From: a bacterium
GTDB taxonomy: Bacteria; Zhuqueibacterota; Zhuqueibacteria; Residuimicrobiales; Krinioviventaceae
Direction: 5' to 3'
DNA length: 64,000 nucleotides
Assembly (NCBI GenBank): GCA_963674595.2
Contig: CAXXFV010000003.1
Span: 288,001 to 352,000 of the forward strand
A program made the translations under genes and the position numbers. The notes beneath the pieces are model-generated. The model was given only the letters and a program-made list of their open reading frames with translations, had not been told where the DNA came from and did not search any database. Below are positions 45,830 to 57,012 of the stretch, in pieces (position 1 is the first letter of the stretch; each line of letters starts with the position of its first letter).

Positions 45830-46840
45830 ATGGTCCGCTTTGCTGTGGTCGGATTCGGAATGATTGGTGCTGTTCATGCACAAACCATAAAAAAAAATAA
45901 AAATGCAAAACTCGTCGCAATTGTGGAAAACGATCCCAAAAAACTGGATTCCGTTGTTAAAGGAAATATCGACACAGGTCAGGATGACAATGTTCTTGCC
46001 GGTGTACAGACATTTGGTTCCATTGACGAGATGTTAGCCCAAACCGACGTGGACTGCGTCAGTGTTTGTTTGCCGACATATATTCATCGTGAATTTGCTG
46101 TAAAAGCGCTTCAAGCGGGCAAACGTGTTGTGTGTGAAAAACCAATGGCTCTGAGCATCGAGGATTGTGACGCGATGATTAAAGCAGCAAAAGAAACCAA
46201 TAAAAAACTGTTCATTGCACAGTGCATTCGATTTTGGCCCGAATATACAATTTTAAAAAAATACATTGATTCTAAAGAACTGGGGAATCCAACATCCATT
46301 GTGCTGCGGCGAATAAGCGGATCACCATTTTGGGCCGGACCTCAGAGTTGGTTTGCCAACCCGCAAAAAAGCGGCGGTTGTTTGTTTGATTTGCATGTGC
46401 ACGATCTTGATTTTATACAATACCTGTTCGGTCGCCCAAAAGCTGTTTATGCCCAGGGCATTACAGGAAAAAGCGGCGGTAATGAGTCTGTTATCGCACA
46501 GTATCACTTTAAAGACAACCTGATTTGTATGGCTGAAGGAAGCTGGGCCTATCCGGCCGGATTTAAAATGTCCTATACCGCGCTCTTTGAAAAAGGCAAA
46601 CTGGAATTTGACAGTTCAGCCTCACCAACCCTGACATTACAACACATGGGAAAAGAAGAAACACAGCCGATTCCGGTACCGCAAGGTGACGGTTATCAGA
46701 ATGAATATGAATATTTTATAAACTGTATTATAAATGATCAAACACCGGTTGAAATTTTACCGGAAAGCGCCAGACAAAGTATTGAAATAGCCCTGGCGGA
46801 AAAACAATCCATAGAACAAAACGACCTGATACAATTTTGA
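45830..46840 (+). CDS. Gfo/Idh/MocA-family oxidoreductase
   Basis: GFGMIG, CEKPMA, SGG.LFDLHVHD. Confidence 0.92.
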   Translation: MVRFAVVGFGMIGAVHAQTIKKNKNAKLVAIVENDPKKLDSVVKGNIDTGQDDNVLAGVQTFGSIDEMLAQTDVDCVSVCLPTYIHREFAVKALQAGKRVVCEKPMALSIEDCDAMIKAAKETNKKLFIAQCIRFWPEYTILKKYIDSKELGNPTSIVLRRISGSPFWAGPQSWFANPQKSGGCLFDLHVHDLDFIQYLFGRPKAVYAQGITGKSGGNESVIAQYHFKDNLICMAEGSWAYPAGFKMSYTALFEKGKLEFDSSASPTLTLQHMGKEETQPIPVPQGDGYQNEYEYFINCIINDQTPVEILPESARQSIEIALAEKQSIEQNDLIQF

Positions 46841-46861
46841 TTTATAAATAAAACCGTTTAC

Positions 46862-47524
46862 ATGCAAACTGGCTATCAAATTATTCCACAGGTTTCCGTC
46901 ATACTGCCGGTATTTAACCGGAAGCATTTAATCATGCGGGCCATACAATCCGTAGAGGCACAAACTTTTACGGATTGGGAATTGTTGATTATTGATGACG
47001 GCAGCACCGACGGCCTGGAAGAAATGATCATCAACAAAATCCATGAAAAAAAAAGATGGCGATATATGAAGCATGCACAACGGCGTTTAGCGGCAACACG
47101 CAACATCGGCATTCATGCGGCCCTGGGTGAATTTATAACATTTCTGGATTCAGATGATGAATATAAACCAAACCACCTGGCCCTTCGTATGGAATATTTT
47201 AAAACACATCCGCAGGTTGATATTATACATGGCGGTGTCGAATTGGTTGGGCCGGAAGAGACCCACTATGTTCAGGACGTTGATAATCCGGCCAAAAAGA
47301 TCCATATTTCAGAATGTTGTGTCGGGGCCACTTTTTTGGGAAAAAAACAGGCTTTTATTAAAAGCGGCGGATTTAAAATTCTCCCCTATTCAGCCGAATC
47401 GGAATTATTGCCCAGACTGGAAAAACAGTTTCATGTTGAAAAAGTTGATTTTCCGACCTATCGTTATTATACCGGTCTGGAAGACAGTATTTGTTCACAA
47501 ATAAAACAGAAAAATACAATATGA
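46862..47524 (+). CDS. Glycosyltransferase family 2
   Basis: VSVILPVFNR, IIDDGSTD, RNIGI, FLDSDD. Confidence 0.9.
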   Translation: MQTGYQIIPQVSVILPVFNRKHLIMRAIQSVEAQTFTDWELLIIDDGSTDGLEEMIINKIHEKKRWRYMKHAQRRLAATRNIGIHAALGEFITFLDSDDEYKPNHLALRMEYFKTHPQVDIIHGGVELVGPEETHYVQDVDNPAKKIHISECCVGATFLGKKQAFIKSGGFKILPYSAESELLPRLEKQFHVEKVDFPTYRYYTGLEDSICSQIKQKNTI

Positions 47525-50322: not shown

Positions 50323-51785
50323 TTATTCTTTATAAGCTTTCAGAATTTTACTGATAATATTGCTCGTTGACATACCATCGATGCCGGCCAAAAGCGCAAT
50401 TTCACCGCCATAGCCTTCCACCAGTTTTCTTTCTTTCTGATTAAGCGAATCAAGTGTATAATCGCCGCCTTTGGCAAAAATATCGGGCTCAATCAGTTCG
50501 ATCAATTTCATCGGACTCGGTTCGTCAAAAATAACAACATAATCCACACATGTCATAGCAGATAATAGTTTTGCCCGCTGGCTTTCCTGAACAATCGGTC
50601 TCAACGGCCCTTTAAATGCCCGCACCGAAGCATCACTGTTTAATCCTACAACCATAACATCACCCAATGATCTGGCCTTTTCCAGATATAATATATGACC
50701 CACATGCATAATATCATAGCAACCGTTTGTCCAAACAACTTTTTTTCCGGCGGCCTTTAATCGGGTTGTAATTGTTTTAATTGTGCCGGTGTAACCAGTT
50801 TTTCTGCCAAAACTTCCACATCCAACTGTTTTTCCTGCTCAATAACATCCTGAACAGTAACGGAAACAAGTCCCGGACGCGACACAGCAACACCGGCCGT
50901 TGTATTTGTAAACCTGGCAATTTCCTGCGCATCGATTTGGGCCAATAAACCGGCTGTCACAGAAGCAACTACGGTTTCTCCGGCCCCGGTAACATCAAAA
51001 ATTTTAAATGTTCGAGTTGGAACGTGATAGTAATTTTCGGTTTGAAAAACATAAATACCTTCAGACCCGCACGTTAAAAACACATGATCACACTTTAATT
51101 TTTTTTGCAGCGTTTTTCCCAGCTTTTCGATGTTATCCTCATCCTGCTCGACAACCGTTCTGCTTTCCTGCTCGTTTGGTGTCACGGCTGTAAATCCGGC
51201 AAACAAACCAAGTTGTTTTTCAGAATCTCCGATACAGATCTTGCCGTCAAAAAAAGATTTCACAGCCTGAATAAATTCTTTATGGATAAAACATTCCGTT
51301 TTATCCATTACAACAAGTGCGTCCATTTTTGCAGAATGTTTTTTAATTTTCGATAATATCTTTTCCTGCAAAATTTGGGGAATGTTTTGGTTTCCGGGGG
51401 TGTCAATTCTTAAAATATCATGATCAGGGTAATGTGCACCTTTTACTGAAATCCGTGTTTGACAATTGGTAAAAACTGATTTATCCTGCATAATTATATC
51501 GGTATTAATCCCCTGTTTCGAAATTTGCCGTAACAGTTCATGTCCGTTTGCATCATCACCAACAAATCCTGCGAGCACCACATGGCAGCCGAAATTTTTA
51601 AGCAAAACCGCCACATGTGCCGCACCGCCGGGTTCCTGTGAACGCTGTTTACTGTGCACAATAGGTATAGGACTTTCTTCAGAAAGCGAATACATGGAAC
51701 CGCGTATATTTTCATTCATAAAAATATCACCAACCACCATCACATTTTTATCTTTTATCTTTTCAAAAACAGACATGTCATTCAT
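50323..51785 (-). CDS. hldE: HldE/RfaE-like bifunctional protein (PfkB-type kinase plus heptose-1-P adenylyltransferase); frameshifted near 50775-50778
   Basis: VVGD, PGGAAHVA, TPNE, DVTGAGET; one added A continues as KKVVWTNGCYDIMHVGH...GLNSDAS...KGGDY...STS. Confidence 0.8.
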
Positions 51786-51978: not shown

Positions 51979-52935
51979 GTGAAGTATTTAATTACAGGTG
52001 GAGCCGGCTTTATAGGCTCCAATCTTGCAGAAGCACTTTTACAAAAAGGTGAACAGGTTGTTGTTTTGGACAACTTTTCAACAGGAAATCGCCATAATTT
52101 ATCAAGTTTTAAGAAAAACACGCAACAGTTCAAACTTATTGAAGGCGACATTCGTGATCAGGAAACATGCCATGAAGCTTGTCAAGGTGTGGATTATGTG
52201 CTGCACCAGGGTGCTTTGGGTTCAATTCCGCGTTCTATTGCACACCCGGTGACAACGAATGCAAACAATGTTGACGGCACACTAAACATTCTGGTGGCTG
52301 CCAGAGACGCAAATGTAAAAAGACTCGTTTTTGCTTCGTCTTCTTCGGTTTATGGAAGTAATAAAACATTGCCGAAAGAAGAATCCATGATTGTTAAACC
52401 CATCTCCCCATATGCGGCTTCAAAATATATCGGAGAAATGTATTGCCGGATTTTTCAGGAACTTTATGGCTTGAAAACAATTGCATTAAGATATTTTAAT
52501 GTTTTCGGCCGCCGACAGGACCCGAATTCTGCCTATGCCGCTGTTATTCCTCTTTTTGTCAAAAGTTTATTGTCCGATTCAGCCCCGGTTATTTTTGGTG
52601 ATGGATTGCAAAGCCGTGATTTCAGCTATATTGACAACGTAATCCAGGCCAATTTACTGGCCTGTGAAGCGCCTGATGAAGCATGTGGACAGGTATATAA
52701 TATTGCCTGTGGAGAACGGACGACCGTTAACGATTTATATTATAAAATTTGCGAACTATTGGGGATAAAGATTGAACCTCGCTATGAGTCGAACAGAAAG
52801 GGAGATGTTAAGCACTCCCTGGCAGACATATCAAAAGCAAAATCATTGTTGAATTATAATCCTAAATATAACGTATTTGACGGATTAACCGAAGCGATGA
52901 ACTGGTATAAAGATCATATTAATGAGTGGTTATAG
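51979..52935 (+). CDS. NAD-dependent UDP-sugar 4-epimerase (WbpP/TviC-like SDR)
   Basis: TGGAGFIGS, HQGALGSIPRS, SSSSVYG, YAASK, LRYFNVFG..QDP. Confidence 0.9.
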   Translation: MKYLITGGAGFIGSNLAEALLQKGEQVVVLDNFSTGNRHNLSSFKKNTQQFKLIEGDIRDQETCHEACQGVDYVLHQGALGSIPRSIAHPVTTNANNVDGTLNILVAARDANVKRLVFASSSSVYGSNKTLPKEESMIVKPISPYAASKYIGEMYCRIFQELYGLKTIALRYFNVFGRRQDPNSAYAAVIPLFVKSLLSDSAPVIFGDGLQSRDFSYIDNVIQANLLACEAPDEACGQVYNIACGERTTVNDLYYKICELLGIKIEPRYESNRKGDVKHSLADISKAKSLLNYNPKYNVFDGLTEAMNWYKDHINEWL

Positions 52936-52944
52936 GGCCATATA

Positions 52945-55572
52945 ATGACAAACACGCTGCAATCCCAACAAATTATATCAATGATTATGGCGGCGGGGAA
53001 AGGGTCCCGCATGAAAACGCCGGGAACACACAAAGTTTGCCACAAAATTAATGGTAAAACCGTTATTCACAATACACTTGAAACACTGCAACAGTGCGGC
53101 ATCCAAACAAACGTCATTATCGTTGGCGATAATTCGGAACAGGTTATTCAGGCCGCTTCCGGGATAGACAATTGTGAAAACTATTACTGTCTTCAAAACG
53201 AACAAAGAGGGACCGGTCACGCGGCAAAAATAGGCGCACACTGGCTCGACATGATGGATTACCAGGGAGCCGTTCTCATTTTAGCCGGAGATAAAATCAT
53301 TGATCCGGACACGCTTTTAAATTTTGTTGACAATTTTAAACAGTCCGGTGCCGACCTGTCGTTTATGATCGGTCATGCAAAACATTATCCCAGTGCCGGA
53401 CGCGTTGTCATGAATGATCAAGGACAGGCTGCAGGAATTGTCGAAATTTTTGACCTTAAAAAAGCGTTGTTTGTTAAATATCTTGAAAAAGATTTATCAC
53501 AAAAAAATTTAGACCCAGAATCAATAATTACACGTGCCAGGAAAACATTTGGAAATGAAAAGAAAGCCCAAAAAGCGTTGGGCGCTTTATGGAATTTCCT
53601 CAAAAAAAACACCAAGGTAACAAAAACAGACCTTGGTAAACACCTTAAAAAAACGGCAACAATCTCTTTAGGGAAAACAGATTTTTCTGTAGAACATGTA
53701 AAAAATTCTGAATATACTAACCAATCTGTTTACCTGGTTAAAGCACAGGCCCTGCAGTATGCACTGGGCAAACTCTCGTCAGACAATGCCCAGAATGAAC
53801 TGTATCTGCCGGATATTATTCATATTTTAAATTCTGATAGTTATAAACTCAAAACGTTCCTGGTTGAAGAACCGGAAAAAATTATGGCCTTTAATACAAT
53901 TGAAGAGCTTGAACAAATAAGAGTTGTTTTATCAAAACAGGAAATTAAAATCATAGAACCGAAAAAAGACAGCAGAAAAGTTAGTGAATGGCTAAATATA
54001 ATCGAATCAAACAACAGTGATTTGAATTCGTTTTTTAATGAAACCTATGGCTATTGTCACGACCTTATTCCCGAAAAAAAGCAGCGTCTCAAACAAATGC
54101 TTGAGCATTACAAAAACAAATTTGGTGATGCACAGGTAGTAATTGCCAGAACACCGGGACGTGTAAATTTAATGGGACGGCATATTGAGCATCAGGGTGG
54201 ACATTGTAACATGATTGCAATTGACAGGGACTTGTTTCTTGTCGCCGGCACACGCAATGACCACATGATTCACATAGAAAATACAGACCGTCGTCATTTT
54301 AAAAACCGGATATTTTCCTATAGTGAGTTATTGGCTTCCCCAAAAATGAATCAACCCTGGATTGATATTGTTAACAGTCAGAGAATAAAAAACATTTTAT
54401 CAAAAAATCCAGGCGATTGGTCGCATTATGTCAAAGCAGCAGCAGCACGTTTTCAATATGAATATCAGGACCGGCTTTTAAAAGGAATGAACATTGTTGT
54501 ATCCGGGGACATTCCTATTGCTTCAGGGCTCAGTTCATCCTCAGCGCTTGTTGTTGCGACTTCAGAAGTCATTGCCTCTTTAAATTCCATCAAATTGTCA
54601 AAACAAAAATTTGTAGAATTATGCGGCGAAGGCGAATGGTTTGTCGGCACACGCGGAGGCGCCGGTGATCAGGCAGCCATGAAATTCAGTCAAAAAGGTT
54701 ATGTAACCAAAATAGCATTTTTTCCAATCAAAGTTGAAGATTCGGTTCGACTGGCTGATGATTATACGGTATTGATTTGCAATTCCCAAATAAAAGCGCA
54801 AAAAACAGCCGGGGCCAAAGACACTTTTAATCATCGGGTAGCCTGTTATCATTTGGCACGGGAATATATCAAATTAAAATTTCCACAACATTCCGAAAAA
54901 ATTATTCATTTAAGAGACATCAACACAGAAAATTTAAATATTAACAACCAGGAACTATTAAATCTTGTTAAATCCTGTCCGGAAAAATTGACAAGAAAAC
55001 AAATTATAAAATTATTTTCAGATGATATATGCAGCAAATATCTCAGTACTCATTCGGAAAACTATAACGAATATCCGTTACGTAATGTATTGATGTATGG
55101 TTTGTCGGAATGTCAGCGCAGTAAAAAAAGTGCCGAACTTATTCAGGAAAATAAAATAAAGGAATTTGGAAACCTGATAAACATTTCACACAACGGTGAC
55201 CGGATTGTATCTCATTCTGCCGATGGCACACAAAAGGCTTTTTTAGCGGATTATTCCGATAACCGTTTGGATGAACTGATCAATGTATCACAAACAAACG
55301 GCACATTCTGTTTATCAAACCATTCCGGTTCCTACAGTTGCAGCATTCCCAAAATCGATTATATGGTTGATCTGGCAAATTCTGTTGACGGTGTTTGCGG
55401 TGCCCAGATTCTTGGGGCCGGATTAGGCGGCTGTATCATGGTACTGGTGCAAAAAAATGCCAGTGAACAGTTACAATCAAAGCTAATTGAAAATTATTAT
55501 CAGCCAAACAACCTGGAACCGCAAATGCTAATATGCGTTCCGGTTGCCGGTAGTGGGACAATATCCATCTAA
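52945..55572 (+). CDS. Fusion of GlmU-like sugar-1-phosphate nucleotidyltransferase and GalK-like GHMP sugar kinase
   Basis: AAGKGSRMK, EQRGTGHA, NAQNELYLPD; PGRVNLMGRHIEHQGG, GLSSSSA, GDQ, GAGLGGC. Confidence 0.85.
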   Translation: MTNTLQSQQIISMIMAAGKGSRMKTPGTHKVCHKINGKTVIHNTLETLQQCGIQTNVIIVGDNSEQVIQAASGIDNCENYYCLQNEQRGTGHAAKIGAHWLDMMDYQGAVLILAGDKIIDPDTLLNFVDNFKQSGADLSFMIGHAKHYPSAGRVVMNDQGQAAGIVEIFDLKKALFVKYLEKDLSQKNLDPESIITRARKTFGNEKKAQKALGALWNFLKKNTKVTKTDLGKHLKKTATISLGKTDFSVEHVKNSEYTNQSVYLVKAQALQYALGKLSSDNAQNELYLPDIIHILNSDSYKLKTFLVEEPEKIMAFNTIEELEQIRVVLSKQEIKIIEPKKDSRKVSEWLNIIESNNSDLNSFFNETYGYCHDLIPEKKQRLKQMLEHYKNKFGDAQVVIARTPGRVNLMGRHIEHQGGHCNMIAIDRDLFLVAGTRNDHMIHIENTDRRHFKNRIFSYSELLASPKMNQPWIDIVNSQRIKNILSKNPGDWSHYVKAAAARFQYEYQDRLLKGMNIVVSGDIPIASGLSSSSALVVATSEVIASLNSIKLSKQKFVELCGEGEWFVGTRGGAGDQAAMKFSQKGYVTKIAFFPIKVEDSVRLADDYTVLICNSQIKAQKTAGAKDTFNHRVACYHLAREYIKLKFPQHSEKIIHLRDINTENLNINNQELLNLVKSCPEKLTRKQIIKLFSDDICSKYLSTHSENYNEYPLRNVLMYGLSECQRSKKSAELIQENKIKEFGNLINISHNGDRIVSHSADGTQKAFLADYSDNRLDELINVSQTNGTFCLSNHSGSYSCSIPKIDYMVDLANSVDGVCGAQILGAGLGGCIMVLVQKNASEQLQSKLIENYYQPNNLEPQMLICVPVAGSGTISI

Positions 55573-55599: not shown

Positions 55600-57012
55600 T
55601 TGAACAGATTAGAGAAAAATAATTTTACAGATACTTTTTTAAACAGATTTTTACAATACAATTCTATATACCAGTTGTTTGAAAAAAGAGATACGATTCT
55701 GATTGGTGTATCGGGTGGGGCCGATTCTGTTGTTTTACTTGATATTTTTAACAGGATTTCAGAACAGTGGGAACTCAAAATCATCGCAGCCCATCTTAAT
55801 CACCAGTTACGGGGTCCGGATGCCGACAAGGATGCCGAGTTTGTTCAAGAACTTTTGAAAAACAAATCCATTCCTTTGGTCCTTGAAAAATACGATGTAA
55901 AAGCCTGGTGTCGTGAAAACAATGTCAGTGTGGAAACCGGTGCCAGGCAGGTCCGATATAATTTTTATAAAAAAACAGCAGAACAACACTGTTGCCGCAG
56001 GGTTGCCACCGGCCATCATTTGGATGATCAGGCAGAAACAATATTATACCGGCTAATGCGCGGTGCCGGAACGTTGGGTTTGTCCGGTATTCGGCAGAAA
56101 AGAGGGATTTACATCAGACCATTGTTGTTTGCCGACCGCCGGTCTATAATTAAATATGCCGACGAAAACAATATTAGCTTTCGTAATGACGCAACAAACC
56201 AGGATATTTCCTATCGCCGTAACCGGATACGACACAATTTAATACCGGAAATTCAAACCCACTTTAATCCCAACATCTCCCAAACTCTTTCAAATTTGGG
56301 AACCATTATGGCGGAAACCGAAGAATATCTCAACCATCAGGCAAATATAGCATTAAATGACTGTTCCAGGTTTCAGGATGAAAACAAAATTATCCTTGAT
56401 ATTAAAGAGTTTTTACTGTACTTTAGGGCTTTACAAAAACATATAATTCGGAACGCCATTAAAAAGGTAGGGACAAGGACCTATAATCCGGATTATATTA
56501 CATTAGGAAAAATCCTGCAATTGTGCCGCAAACAAAAAAGCGGACGCTCTTTACCCATTTATGATGATATTTCCATTAAAATCAGCCGAGATGAACTTGT
56601 CATTCAAAAAACTGAGAAACAAGTTAAAGAGATCGTCGTAGACGAAATACCTGCGAATATAGAATTGTGGGACAATCAAATTTTAGAAATAAATAGAAAC
56701 TTAAAATCGTTAGATCAGATAATAAAAGCAAGTACGTCGACAAAAATTTGGATTGACGAAGAACGGATATCGACACCATTAAAAATCAGAACAGCAAGAC
56801 ACGGAGATCGTTTTTATCCGCTCAACATGAAGGGATCAAAAAAATTATCCGATTTTTTTATCGACGAAAAAATACCAAATTACAAGCGAGATCGGATTCC
56901 TGTTCTGGAATGCGGGAATAAAATAGTCTGGATTTGTGGCTACAGGCTCGATGATCGTTTTAAAATAACTTTAAACACAACAAAAAGCCTGAAACTTGAA
57001 ATAAAAGGTTGA
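55600..57012 (+). CDS. tilS: tRNA(Ile)-lysidine synthetase
   Basis: SGGADS, HLNHQLR, GHHLDDQAET, IRPLL, RNRIR, KKLSDFFID. Confidence 0.96.
   Translation: MNRLEKNNFTDTFLNRFLQYNSIYQLFEKRDTILIGVSGGADSVVLLDIFNRISEQWELKIIAAHLNHQLRGPDADKDAEFVQELLKNKSIPLVLEKYDVKAWCRENNVSVETGARQVRYNFYKKTAEQHCCRRVATGHHLDDQAETILYRLMRGAGTLGLSGIRQKRGIYIRPLLFADRRSIIKYADENNISFRNDATNQDISYRRNRIRHNLIPEIQTHFNPNISQTLSNLGTIMAETEEYLNHQANIALNDCSRFQDENKIILDIKEFLLYFRALQKHIIRNAIKKVGTRTYNPDYITLGKILQLCRKQKSGRSLPIYDDISIKISRDELVIQKTEKQVKEIVVDEIPANIELWDNQILEINRNLKSLDQIIKASTSTKIWIDEERISTPLKIRTARHGDRFYPLNMKGSKKLSDFFIDEKIPNYKRDRIPVLECGNKIVWICGYRLDDRFKITLNTTKSLKLEIKG

Follow-up and report, generated by a model that had tools for sequence, protein, structure and literature searches.

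What does a bacterium make with a protein that joins a GlmU-type nucleotidyltransferase to a galactokinase-type sugar kinase, and from which sugar? The question is raised by a gene of a Krinioviventaceae bacterium (Zhuqueibacterota; assembly GCA_963674595.2), located in the 64,000-nucleotide stretch that we analyzed (positions 288,001 to 352,000 of contig CAXXFV010000003.1; termed the window). The gene (P0001, positions 52945 to 55572 of the window, plus strand) is a single open reading frame (ORF) with an ATG start and encodes an 875-amino-acid (aa) candidate bifunctional sugar-1-kinase/sugar-1-phosphate uridylyltransferase. The initial annotation of this fusion gene had proposed one-protein salvage of a free (amino)uronic acid to a UDP-sugar, followed by conversion to the C4 epimer by the product of the adjacent 4-epimerase gene. 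We favor, with a probability of about 65%, an accessory salvage system composed of a bifunctional kinase/uridylyltransferase and an epimerase, acting on a 2-acetamido sugar with a possibly anionic C6. The C-terminal GalK-type GHMP kinase would phosphorylate the anomeric hydroxyl of the free sugar with ATP, the N-terminal GlmU-type domain would transfer UMP from UTP onto the resulting sugar-1-phosphate, and the co-transcribed WbpP/TviC-type 4-epimerase would interconvert the UDP-sugar and its C4 epimer. The sugar would have the galacto or gluco configuration and belong to the N-acetylgalactosamine/N-acetylglucosamine (GalNAc/GlcNAc) type, perhaps with an anionic C6 as in the corresponding uronic acids (GalNAcA/GlcNAcA). 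Such a route would bypass de novo synthesis and serve either in salvage or in the activation of a free sugar made in the cell.

Judging from the sequence, the domain matches of the fusion protein are far beyond chance. NTP_transferase covers residues 12 to 167 (E value, 5.8e-13) and NTP_transf_3 residues 13 to 140, followed by GalKase_gal_bdg (PF10509; residues 388 to 434; E value, 2.2e-13; 50 bits for a cutoff of 23.1), GHMP_kinases_N (PF00288; residues 494 to 581; E value, 2.1e-16; 60.4 bits for a cutoff of 22.3), and GHMP_kinases_C (PF08544; residues 775 to 852; E value, 5e-9; 36.9 bits for a cutoff of 21). Pfam gave no match at an E value of ≤0.01 to the hexapeptide repeats of the left-handed beta-helix (LbH) acetyltransferase domain, in agreement with the architecture first described, a GlmU-type domain without the beta-helix joined to a GalK-type kinase. 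The AlphaFold2 model, built on a 36-member alignment of the family, has a mean predicted local distance difference test score (pLDDT) of 90.4 and a predicted template modeling score of 0.64, and it consists of two domains connected by a flexible linker (residues 332 to 395; positions 53938 to 54129, plus strand). The linker is disordered at residues 333 to 339 (pLDDT of <50) and then forms helices (residues 346 to 354, 358 to 368, and 374 to 393), the first of which contains W349, invariant in the 36-member alignment.

The N-terminal domain (approximately residues 8 to 331; positions 52966 to 53937, plus strand) has an alpha/beta structure in the AlphaFold2 model and was assigned to the GlmU type by Pfam, by its best scores with GlmU models, and by GlmU alignments. 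The GlmU structure 9dqf aligns to residues 12 to 173 and 261 to 326, and the signature of the GlmU pyrophosphorylase domain is present [AAGKG(S/T)RM, Q..(L/R)GTGHA, GD, E167, N259, and NAQ.E.Y]. Its nucleotide-binding element AAGKGSRM (residues 16 to 23; positions 52990 to 53013, plus strand) aligns to LAAGKGTRM of GlmU, with G18, G20, R22, and M23 invariant in all 36 sequences. Overall, G18, G20, R22, K30, Q84, G89, T90, G115, D116, E167, N259, N281, E285, and Y287 are invariant or nearly so across this alignment. Because the Q84/G89-T90 segment is of the GlmU type, we infer that the domain is specific for uridine and that UTP is the nucleotide used. In contrast to GlmU, the fusion protein has no LbH domain and scores below every GlmU cutoff (at most 127 bits over residues 12 to 171 with the NCBIfam models, for cutoffs of 367 to 725). 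It also differs by a family-specific insertion of ∼85 residues (168 to 255; positions 53446 to 53709, plus strand) in the sugar-binding lobe, where the GlmU alignments stop at residue 173 and restart at residues 257 to 261. The insertion is mostly helical in the AlphaFold2 model (residues 168 to 186, 191 to 202, 205 to 212, 214 to 221, and 227 to 233), with pLDDT values of 75 to 92 for the block.

The C-terminal domain (residues 396 to 875; positions 54130 to 55569, plus strand) was recognized as a GalK/GALK2-type GHMP sugar kinase by Pfam, NCBIfam, phmmer, and Foldseek. Its closest solved structure is the human GalNAc kinase GALK2: phmmer gave 131 bits for 2a2c and ∼71 bits for GALK1, and Foldseek ranked 2a2c and 2a2d first (E values of 2e-30 and 3e-28; target TM score of 0.84), before yeast Gal1p/Gal3p and human GALK1. 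A weak match to "AbGHMP" (PDB entry 9ulx) could not be traced in the literature. The fusion kinase and GALK2 have in common the PGRVN...H..D framework, motif II, GxxDQ, FNxRV, and motif III; they are only 23% identical, GALK2 has no fused pyrophosphorylase, and the fusion kinase contains an extra segment at approximately residues 450 to 482. The Arg/Asp pair expected for catalysis is in place in the alignment with GALK1 and GALK2, as is motif II, which marks the domain as a GalK-type kinase. D575 (positions 54667 to 54669, plus strand), invariant in 36 of 36 sequences, lies under the catalytic Asp of galactokinases (GGMDQ in GALK2 and GIMDQ in GALK1), and its partner R406, in PGRVN, is equally invariant. 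The phosphate-binding loop of GHMP motif II, PIASGLSSSS (residues 524 to 533; positions 54514 to 54543, plus strand), falls within the PF00288 match and has invariant P524, G528, and S530 to S533; motif III, GAGLGG (residues 824 to 829; positions 55414 to 55431, plus strand), falls within the PF08544 match and has invariant G824, G826, L827, G828, and G829. In total, P404, R406, N408, G411, R412, H413, G418, G419, P524, G528, S530 to S533, D575, and G824 to G829 are invariant or nearly so in the 36 sequences.

The fusion is not an isolated case. A word-indexed homologue search that scored 8,000 candidates returned 203 proteins at an E value of ≤0.001; the 120 listed relatives have 751 to 935 aa, are 34 to 46% identical to the query with a coverage of at least 97% in all but three, and all contain both the nucleotidyltransferase and the GHMP Pfam domains. 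A pattern scan of 185,579 species genomes yielded at least 578 stretches, with a relative encoded in at least 561 species genomes, mostly from uncultured lineages. The 80 loci that we kept cover Armatimonadota, KSB1, Planctomycetota (including a Kuenenia metagenome-assembled genome [MAG]), Chloroflexota, Spirochaetota, Verrucomicrobiota, Clostridia, Acidobacteriota, and others. The fusion family is thus large, phylogenetically broad, and uncharacterized. Eight of the 120 listed relatives bear the NCBI name "NTP transferase domain-containing protein." Both enzyme activities of the fusion protein are predicted from these features, and the two-step conversion of a free sugar into a sugar-1-phosphate and then a UDP-sugar appears well supported, since none of the 120 listed members departs from Arg at the position of R412 and neither domain varies in its catalytic residues across the 36 aligned sequences. 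Given the architecture, the intact catalytic sets, and the recurrence of short-chain dehydrogenase/reductase (SDR) neighbors, among which are the 4-epimerases of the window's lineage and of a Clostridia locus (L056), this two-step route is the best explanation. The proposed one-protein path from sugar to sugar-1-phosphate to UDP-sugar is probably correct, both domains looking intact; the uronic acid as its sugar does not fare as well, with a GalNAc kinase as nearest homologue and an epimerase of the N-acetylhexosamine (HexNAc) type.

Kinase/pyrophosphorylase fusions are a known concept. Fkp (FKGP) converts free L-fucose into GDP-fucose within one polypeptide and, as far as its published descriptions go, places an N-terminal sugar-1-phosphate nucleotidyltransferase before a C-terminal GHMP sugar-1-kinase (PMC11982464, PMC6468028), the same order as in the fusion protein. 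According to the same descriptions, Fkp uses GTP and L-fucose, whereas the fusion combines a GlmU-type (uridine) domain with a GalK/GALK2-type kinase that bears a galactose-binding signature. The fusion gave no Pfam match to the fucokinase family at an E value of ≤0.01, and no FKP entry was among the Foldseek matches listed. The initial annotation had presented the fusion as built from other families than Fkp; the subfamilies do differ, but the two superfamilies and their order are the same. The zebrafish protein DrGKUP, a glucuronokinase/putative UDP-GlcA pyrophosphorylase reported to produce UDP-glucuronic acid from glucuronic acid (GlcA), ATP, and UTP, is described as a ∼260-aa N-terminal bacterial-type nucleotidyltransferase followed by a C-terminal GHMP uronic-acid 1-kinase (PMC3938481), which makes it an immediate precedent for the salvage of a uronic acid by one protein. 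As portrayed there, DrGKUP is eukaryotic and its kinase belongs to the glucuronokinase subfamily, which by description sets it apart from the GalK-type fusion, and the bacterial homologues of its nucleotidyltransferase stand alone (PMC3938481).

Directly upstream of the fusion gene lies a gene for an NAD-dependent UDP-sugar 4-epimerase of 318 aa (positions 51979 to 52935, plus strand), whose TAG stop codon (positions 52933 to 52935) is separated from the ATG of the fusion (position 52945) by 9 bp, as originally noted. On the 3′ side, tilS starts at position 55600 after 27 bases, and hpt and ftsH come next in the same orientation. A promoter/terminator scan found no terminator-like site on the plus strand between the epimerase gene, the fusion gene, and tilS, and no excess of promoter-like sites over shuffled sequences in this stretch. 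PDB and NCBIfam comparisons assign the epimerase to the WbpP/WbgU/TviC type. Its best matches are the solved UDP-GlcNAc/GalNAc 4-epimerases WbpP (1sb8; 359 bits; E value, 1.7e-106) and WbgU (337 bits), versus 161 bits for a solved UDP-GlcA 4-epimerase (6zl6) and ∼124 bits for Escherichia coli GalE, and the best NCBIfam model was TviC (346 bits, below its cutoff of 760), versus 197 bits for the GalE model. In the two same-family genomes that harbor the fusion, an orthologue of the epimerase (71% and 69% identity) is found directly upstream of it in both, and tilS is downstream in the only one of the two loci that extends far enough.

We then looked into the neighborhoods of the fusion gene in other genomes. 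A simple ORF caller retrieved an intact fusion ORF in 74 of the 80 loci (the other 6 were dropped), together with 131 immediate neighbors; N-terminal extensions of the ORF in six loci contain no Pfam domain and are probably start-codon artifacts of the caller. About one-third of the immediate neighbors are carbohydrate related. They include hydrolases (GH127 [2 cases], GH172/DUF2961 [2 cases], an alpha-L-arabinofuranosidase, a fucosidase, and an apiosidase-like protein), Gfo/Idh/MocA oxidoreductases, epimerases, a TviB-like dehydrogenase, and the transporter components DctP, a TRAP (tripartite ATP-independent periplasmic) binding protein, and DcuC. Neighbors of the amino-sugar type are NagA-like, ROK, AGE-like (2 loci), and PIG-L deacetylase (3 loci) proteins, and those of the uronate/pectin type are KduI (L034), UxaE (L028), an MR_MLE dehydratase-like protein (L036), and the DctP protein (L021). 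In two Clostridia MAGs, the fusion is part of surface-polysaccharide clusters, in the order PglD-like, FnlA/B-like, WecB-like, fusion, TviC-like epimerase (307 bits), two GT1 glycosyltransferases, and acetyltransferase in L056, and in the order WecB-like, epimerase, TviB-like UDP-GlcNAc 6-dehydrogenase (502 bits), and fusion in L022. In two Spirochaetaceae MAGs, the fusion follows genes for a PIG-L deacetylase and an Amidohydro_2 protein with overlapping or touching ends; one of these loci (L021) also has an AGE-like gene 5′ and the DctP gene 3′ of the fusion. Two Planctomycetota loci have an SDR gene directly upstream that gave only below-cutoff matches (LegB/RmlB/UXS-like), such that an SDR-family gene adjoins the fusion both in the lineage of the window and in three more (of the WbpP/TviC type in Clostridia, and below the cutoffs in the two Planctomycetota loci).

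The sugar-binding loop bears most directly on the identity of the substrate. As the initial annotation had pointed out, the loop reads GRHIEHQGG (residues 411 to 419; positions 54175 to 54201, plus strand), and R412 aligns under the Glu of GEHTDY/GEHIDY in GALK1 and GALK2; R412, H413, G418, and G419 do not vary among the 36 aligned sequences. The consensus of the family is G-R-H-[VI]-[DE]-x-[QR]-G-G: among the 120 listed members, the Arg was found with a first pattern in 103 cases, with a second in 16, and by eye in P0113 (SRHIDHQGG), and none has Glu. The fusion residues R406, R412, H413, E415, and D575 correspond to Arg37, Glu43, His44, Asp46, and Asp186 of GALK1, in which we take O1 to be contacted by Arg37/Asp186, O6 by Glu43/His44, and O3/O4 by Asp46. 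With the Arg in place of Glu and 175.6 bits for the galactokinase model TIGR00131 (cutoff of 226.65), the domain is no galactokinase proper, and while GALK2 is its closest homologue, it shares neither the Glu loop of GALK2 nor the clade of the Glu-type GALK2-like paralogues. In a quick maximum-likelihood tree, a long branch with 100% support (SH-aLRT, a Shimodaira-Hasegawa-like approximate likelihood ratio test) sets the fusion clade apart from the Glu-type GalK/GALK2-like kinases encoded in the same genomes and in related ones. The loop that the initial annotation gives for plant galacturonokinase (GalAK), GAHIDHQGG, has H..HQGG in common with the fusion but Ala at the position of R412, and so also lacks the Glu. 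The search for shorter homologues brought up fragments of the fusion family and some short relatives, and the protein atlas bacterial clusters only, with no plant protein in either. Plant GalAK is a stand-alone enzyme that feeds the UDP-uronic acid pool together with the UDP-sugar pyrophosphorylase USP; Yang et al. (2009) reportedly found that A41E abolishes its activity and that Y250F admits GlcA, which would accord with a uronic substrate where the Glu is lost.

The source genome adds to this picture. The assembly (6.6 Mb, 37 contigs, 97.6% complete) encodes a canonical GalK (372 bits; loop, GEHTDYNDG), a GALK2-like kinase (G000:C23:503588-505072; 303 bits; ∼490 aa; loop, GEHTDYNGY), and an ARA1-like kinase (160 bits; 474 aa; loop, GGIADYSGS). 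With these three in the same genome, the fusion represents a fourth, distinct GalK-type kinase, and it is unlikely to duplicate the phosphorylation of galactose, of a GalNAc-like sugar, or of arabinose. The Glu-type GALK2-like paralogue was confirmed in seven of nine relatives' loci (L108 to L110 and L113 to L116; the other two loci end at contig ends), and four of these seven genomes also have the fusion. The GALK2-like kinase (∼490 aa, GEHTDYNGYPV) is common across the order, with or without the fusion. The invariant Arg in place of the Glu that binds the C6 hydroxyl is a real argument and suggests an anionic C6, as do the coexisting Glu-type paralogues, the separate clade, and the TviB/TviC-like, carboxylate-transporter, and uronate-related neighbors.

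Other evidence suggests a 2-acetamido sugar: the similarity to GALK2, the GlmU-type domain, the WbpP/WbgU/TviC-type epimerase, and the TviB-like, NagA-like, PIG-L, and AGE-like neighbors. Taken without the argument from C6, this would fit the salvage of a neutral HexNAc, in which GalNAc (or GlcNAc) is converted into HexNAc-1-phosphate and UDP-HexNAc and the epimerase balances UDP-GalNAc and UDP-GlcNAc, making the fusion a one-protein bacterial counterpart of human GALK2 plus AGX1 or of Bifidobacterium NahK plus GlmU. GALK2 is indeed the top match by both sequence and fold, the ROK neighbors would suit such a route as well, and JGI applies the name N-acetylgalactosamine kinase to 26 of the 120 listed relatives. 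In our reading of a locally ambiguous alignment, F628 also corresponds to the Phe of GALK2 (FNIRV), at the place of Tyr236 in GALK1. However, GALK2 and GalK both keep the Glu that no listed fusion member has, the clades are separated by the long, fully supported branch, and the separate Glu-type GALK2-like kinase of the source genome and of four relatives with the fusion makes a redundant function improbable. We regard neutral GalNAc or GlcNAc as a possible, although doubtful, substrate.

The opposite emphasis leads to a galacturonokinase or glucuronokinase that would salvage nonacetylated galacturonic acid (GalA) or GlcA into UDP-GalA or UDP-GlcA, in the manner of plant GalAK plus USP or of DrGKUP. 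The invariant Arg would be accounted for, the HxxH[QR]GG loop of the family resembles the motif quoted for plant GalAK, the source genome already has GalK, GALK2-like, and ARA1-like kinases, and the KduI, UxaE, MR_MLE, DctP, GH127, and apiosidase-like neighbors are in line with it; DrGKUP, as described, provides an existing uronic-acid kinase/pyrophosphorylase fusion (PMC3938481). In contrast, the nearest solved homologue is a GalNAc kinase and no uronate kinase, and the nucleotidyltransferase is of the GlmU type, suited to HexNAc-1-phosphate, rather than of the USP or GalU type. The epimerase resembles WbpP much more than the solved UDP-GlcA 4-epimerase, and amino-sugar neighbors (TviB-like, NagA-like, PIG-L, AGE-like, and WecB-like) occur no less often than uronate ones. 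The term "galacturonokinase-like" used in the initial annotation is not supported by these comparisons: the human GalNAc kinase is the nearest solved homologue in both sequence and fold, and JGI names none of the 120 listed relatives galacturonokinase. An N-acetylated sugar is favored by the evidence no less than plain GalA, and we consider GalA or GlcA an unlikely substrate; that the substrate is another sugar altogether is an improbable outcome too.

A third proposal reconciles the N-acetyl signals (the GALK2-like kinase, the GlmU-like transferase, and the WbpP/TviC-like, TviB-like, and PIG-L neighbors) with those for an anionic C6 (the Arg, the Glu-type paralogues, and the TRAP protein). 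The fusion would be a dedicated 1-kinase/uridylyltransferase for 2-acetamido-2-deoxy-hexuronic acids (GalNAcA/GlcNAcA), with R412 as the partner of the C6 carboxylate and with UDP-GalNAcA and UDP-GlcNAcA as the two forms exchanged by the epimerase. We advance this enzyme tentatively, and GalNAcA or GlcNAcA as its substrate stays a conjecture; in our view, the "(amino)uronic acid" of the initial annotation is as likely as neutral GalNAc.

Among 30 relatives of the source organism, the fusion was detected in 8 (6 intact and 2 in two pieces), namely, in 2 of 18 genomes of the same family, in all 5 of another family, in the single genome of a third, and in none of 6 from the two remaining families; with this distribution, it is an accessory and not a core gene. 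In one relative (G022; C282, L107), the fusion is present as adjacent frames of 254 and 528 aa, split at the interdomain linker, as would suit a modular build.

Several observations weigh against the salvage system that we favor. Both domains score below every curated NCBIfam cutoff, so a function cannot be transferred from GalK or GlmU, and the ∼85-residue insertion sits in the very lobe of the nucleotidyltransferase that binds the sugar. An Arg side chain can hydrogen-bond a neutral hydroxyl as well, and M, T, or V takes the place of the Arg in some short or stand-alone relatives, which the quick tree puts within the fusion clade. The 131 immediate neighbors of the 74 loci are heterogeneous and include no conserved partner gene, and the 78 ORFs located further out come from 17 loci picked because they were already sugar related, a biased sample. 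The link to the epimerase gene is kept in both same-family relatives with the fusion, but a homologue of the window's epimerase occurs in only 5 of the 80 other loci (directly adjacent in 3), the fetched flanks often being short. In the same-family genomes (L100 and L106), the fusion is ∼45% identical and the adjacent epimerase ∼70%; the fusion is therefore either evolving much faster than the epimerase or has been replaced. One of these copies (G001; C214, L106) is broken inside the kinase domain into frames of 638 and 297 aa, and the divergence and the frame break could signal relaxed constraint. The two-frame copies of G001 and G022 may be frameshifts, assembly errors, or true split genes. 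Finally, we know of no precedent for the salvage of an N-acetylhexosaminuronic acid, and our literature search, which covered articles without their supplementary files, found no paper on a bacterial GlmU-type/GalK-type fusion.

The low model scores, the faster divergence, and the broken kinase frame, along with yeast Gal3p among the structural matches, could also indicate that one domain is noncatalytic (decayed or a Gal3p-like sensor), which would leave a single-activity enzyme or a regulator. Yet every mappable catalytic residue is invariant in 36 members from many phyla, the Pfam scan found no DNA-binding or signaling domain, and at least 561 species genomes retain the architecture, which makes the loss of one activity very improbable.

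If both activities are real, an unstudied, broad family makes a UDP-sugar from a free sugar in one polypeptide, and bacteria would have another salvage route, leading to UDP-sugars, besides Fkp (for GDP-fucose) and AmgK/MurU (for UDP-MurNAc). The recycling of sugars into the envelope by bacteria that degrade glycans would then be easier to understand, and the exchange of Glu for Arg in the sugar loop of galactokinases would be a simple determinant of specificity. One-pot production of UDP-sugars could also profit from such a compact biocatalyst, above all if the substrate is a uronic or N-acetyl-uronic acid, the UDP derivatives of which are expensive. Were the substrate GalNAcA or GlcNAcA, N-acetylhexosaminuronic acids would have their first known salvage route.

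The source genome contains further genes of sugar activation. The ARA1-like kinase gene forms a split, salvage-like operon (G000:C4:32562-35961; L096, positions 4563 to 7962, minus strand) with genes for a 339-aa protein that weakly matches inositol monophosphatase and for a GalU-like nucleotidyltransferase (174 bits, below the cutoff), which resembles the fusion divided over two genes and serving a different sugar, perhaps L-arabinose. L-Arabinose as substrate of the fusion itself, raised by the GH127, arabinofuranosidase, and GH172 neighbors, was down-weighted in view of this separate operon and of the HexNAc-type transferase and epimerase. A eukaryote-type pyrophosphorylase of the UDPGP family (PF01704; 466 aa; G000:C4:416340-417275; L098, positions 2080 to 3480) fits no NCBIfam model, and the family had no match in 14 control genomes; alongside the three kinases (GalK, GALK2-like, and ARA1-like), it equips the bacterium with a plant-like sugar-salvage toolkit. 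De novo synthesis of UDP-GlcNAc would be covered by an archaeal-type bifunctional GlmU (G000:C19:25933-27144; L001, positions 1501 to 2712; TIGR03992, 456 bits for a cutoff of 292); no canonical bacterial GlmU scored over the cutoff in this genome, and a second, weaker GlmU paralogue of 458 aa is encoded on C16 (L004, positions 742 to 2118). That the fusion is the sole GlmU of the cell was rejected, given the archaeal-type enzyme and the 22 of 30 relatives without the fusion. Stand-alone kinase clusters of 538 to 553 aa exist in the protein atlas, and longer fused forms ("Rosetta stone" proteins) were not detected at an E value of ≤0.001, which is weak evidence.

The GC content of the fusion region (0.38 to 0.40) matches the remainder of the window. 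Transcribed divergently from the epimerase-fusion operon are separate genes for the two halves of HldE, the rfaE domain II adenylyltransferase (positions 50323 to 50709, minus strand) and the domain I heptose-7-phosphate kinase (positions 50757 to 51785, minus strand), both under the curated cutoffs. Further upstream (positions 45830 to 47524, plus strand) are genes for a Gfo/Idh/MocA oxidoreductase, with inositol 2-dehydrogenase and archaeal UDP-GlcNAc 3-dehydrogenase as best matches, both under the cutoff, and then for a TuaG-like GT2 glycosyltransferase, followed by alr and pfk. Envelope-sugar genes are thus located a few kilobases upstream of the fusion, and Gfo/Idh/MocA genes are also found beside it in four other loci (L029, L050, L058, and L021).

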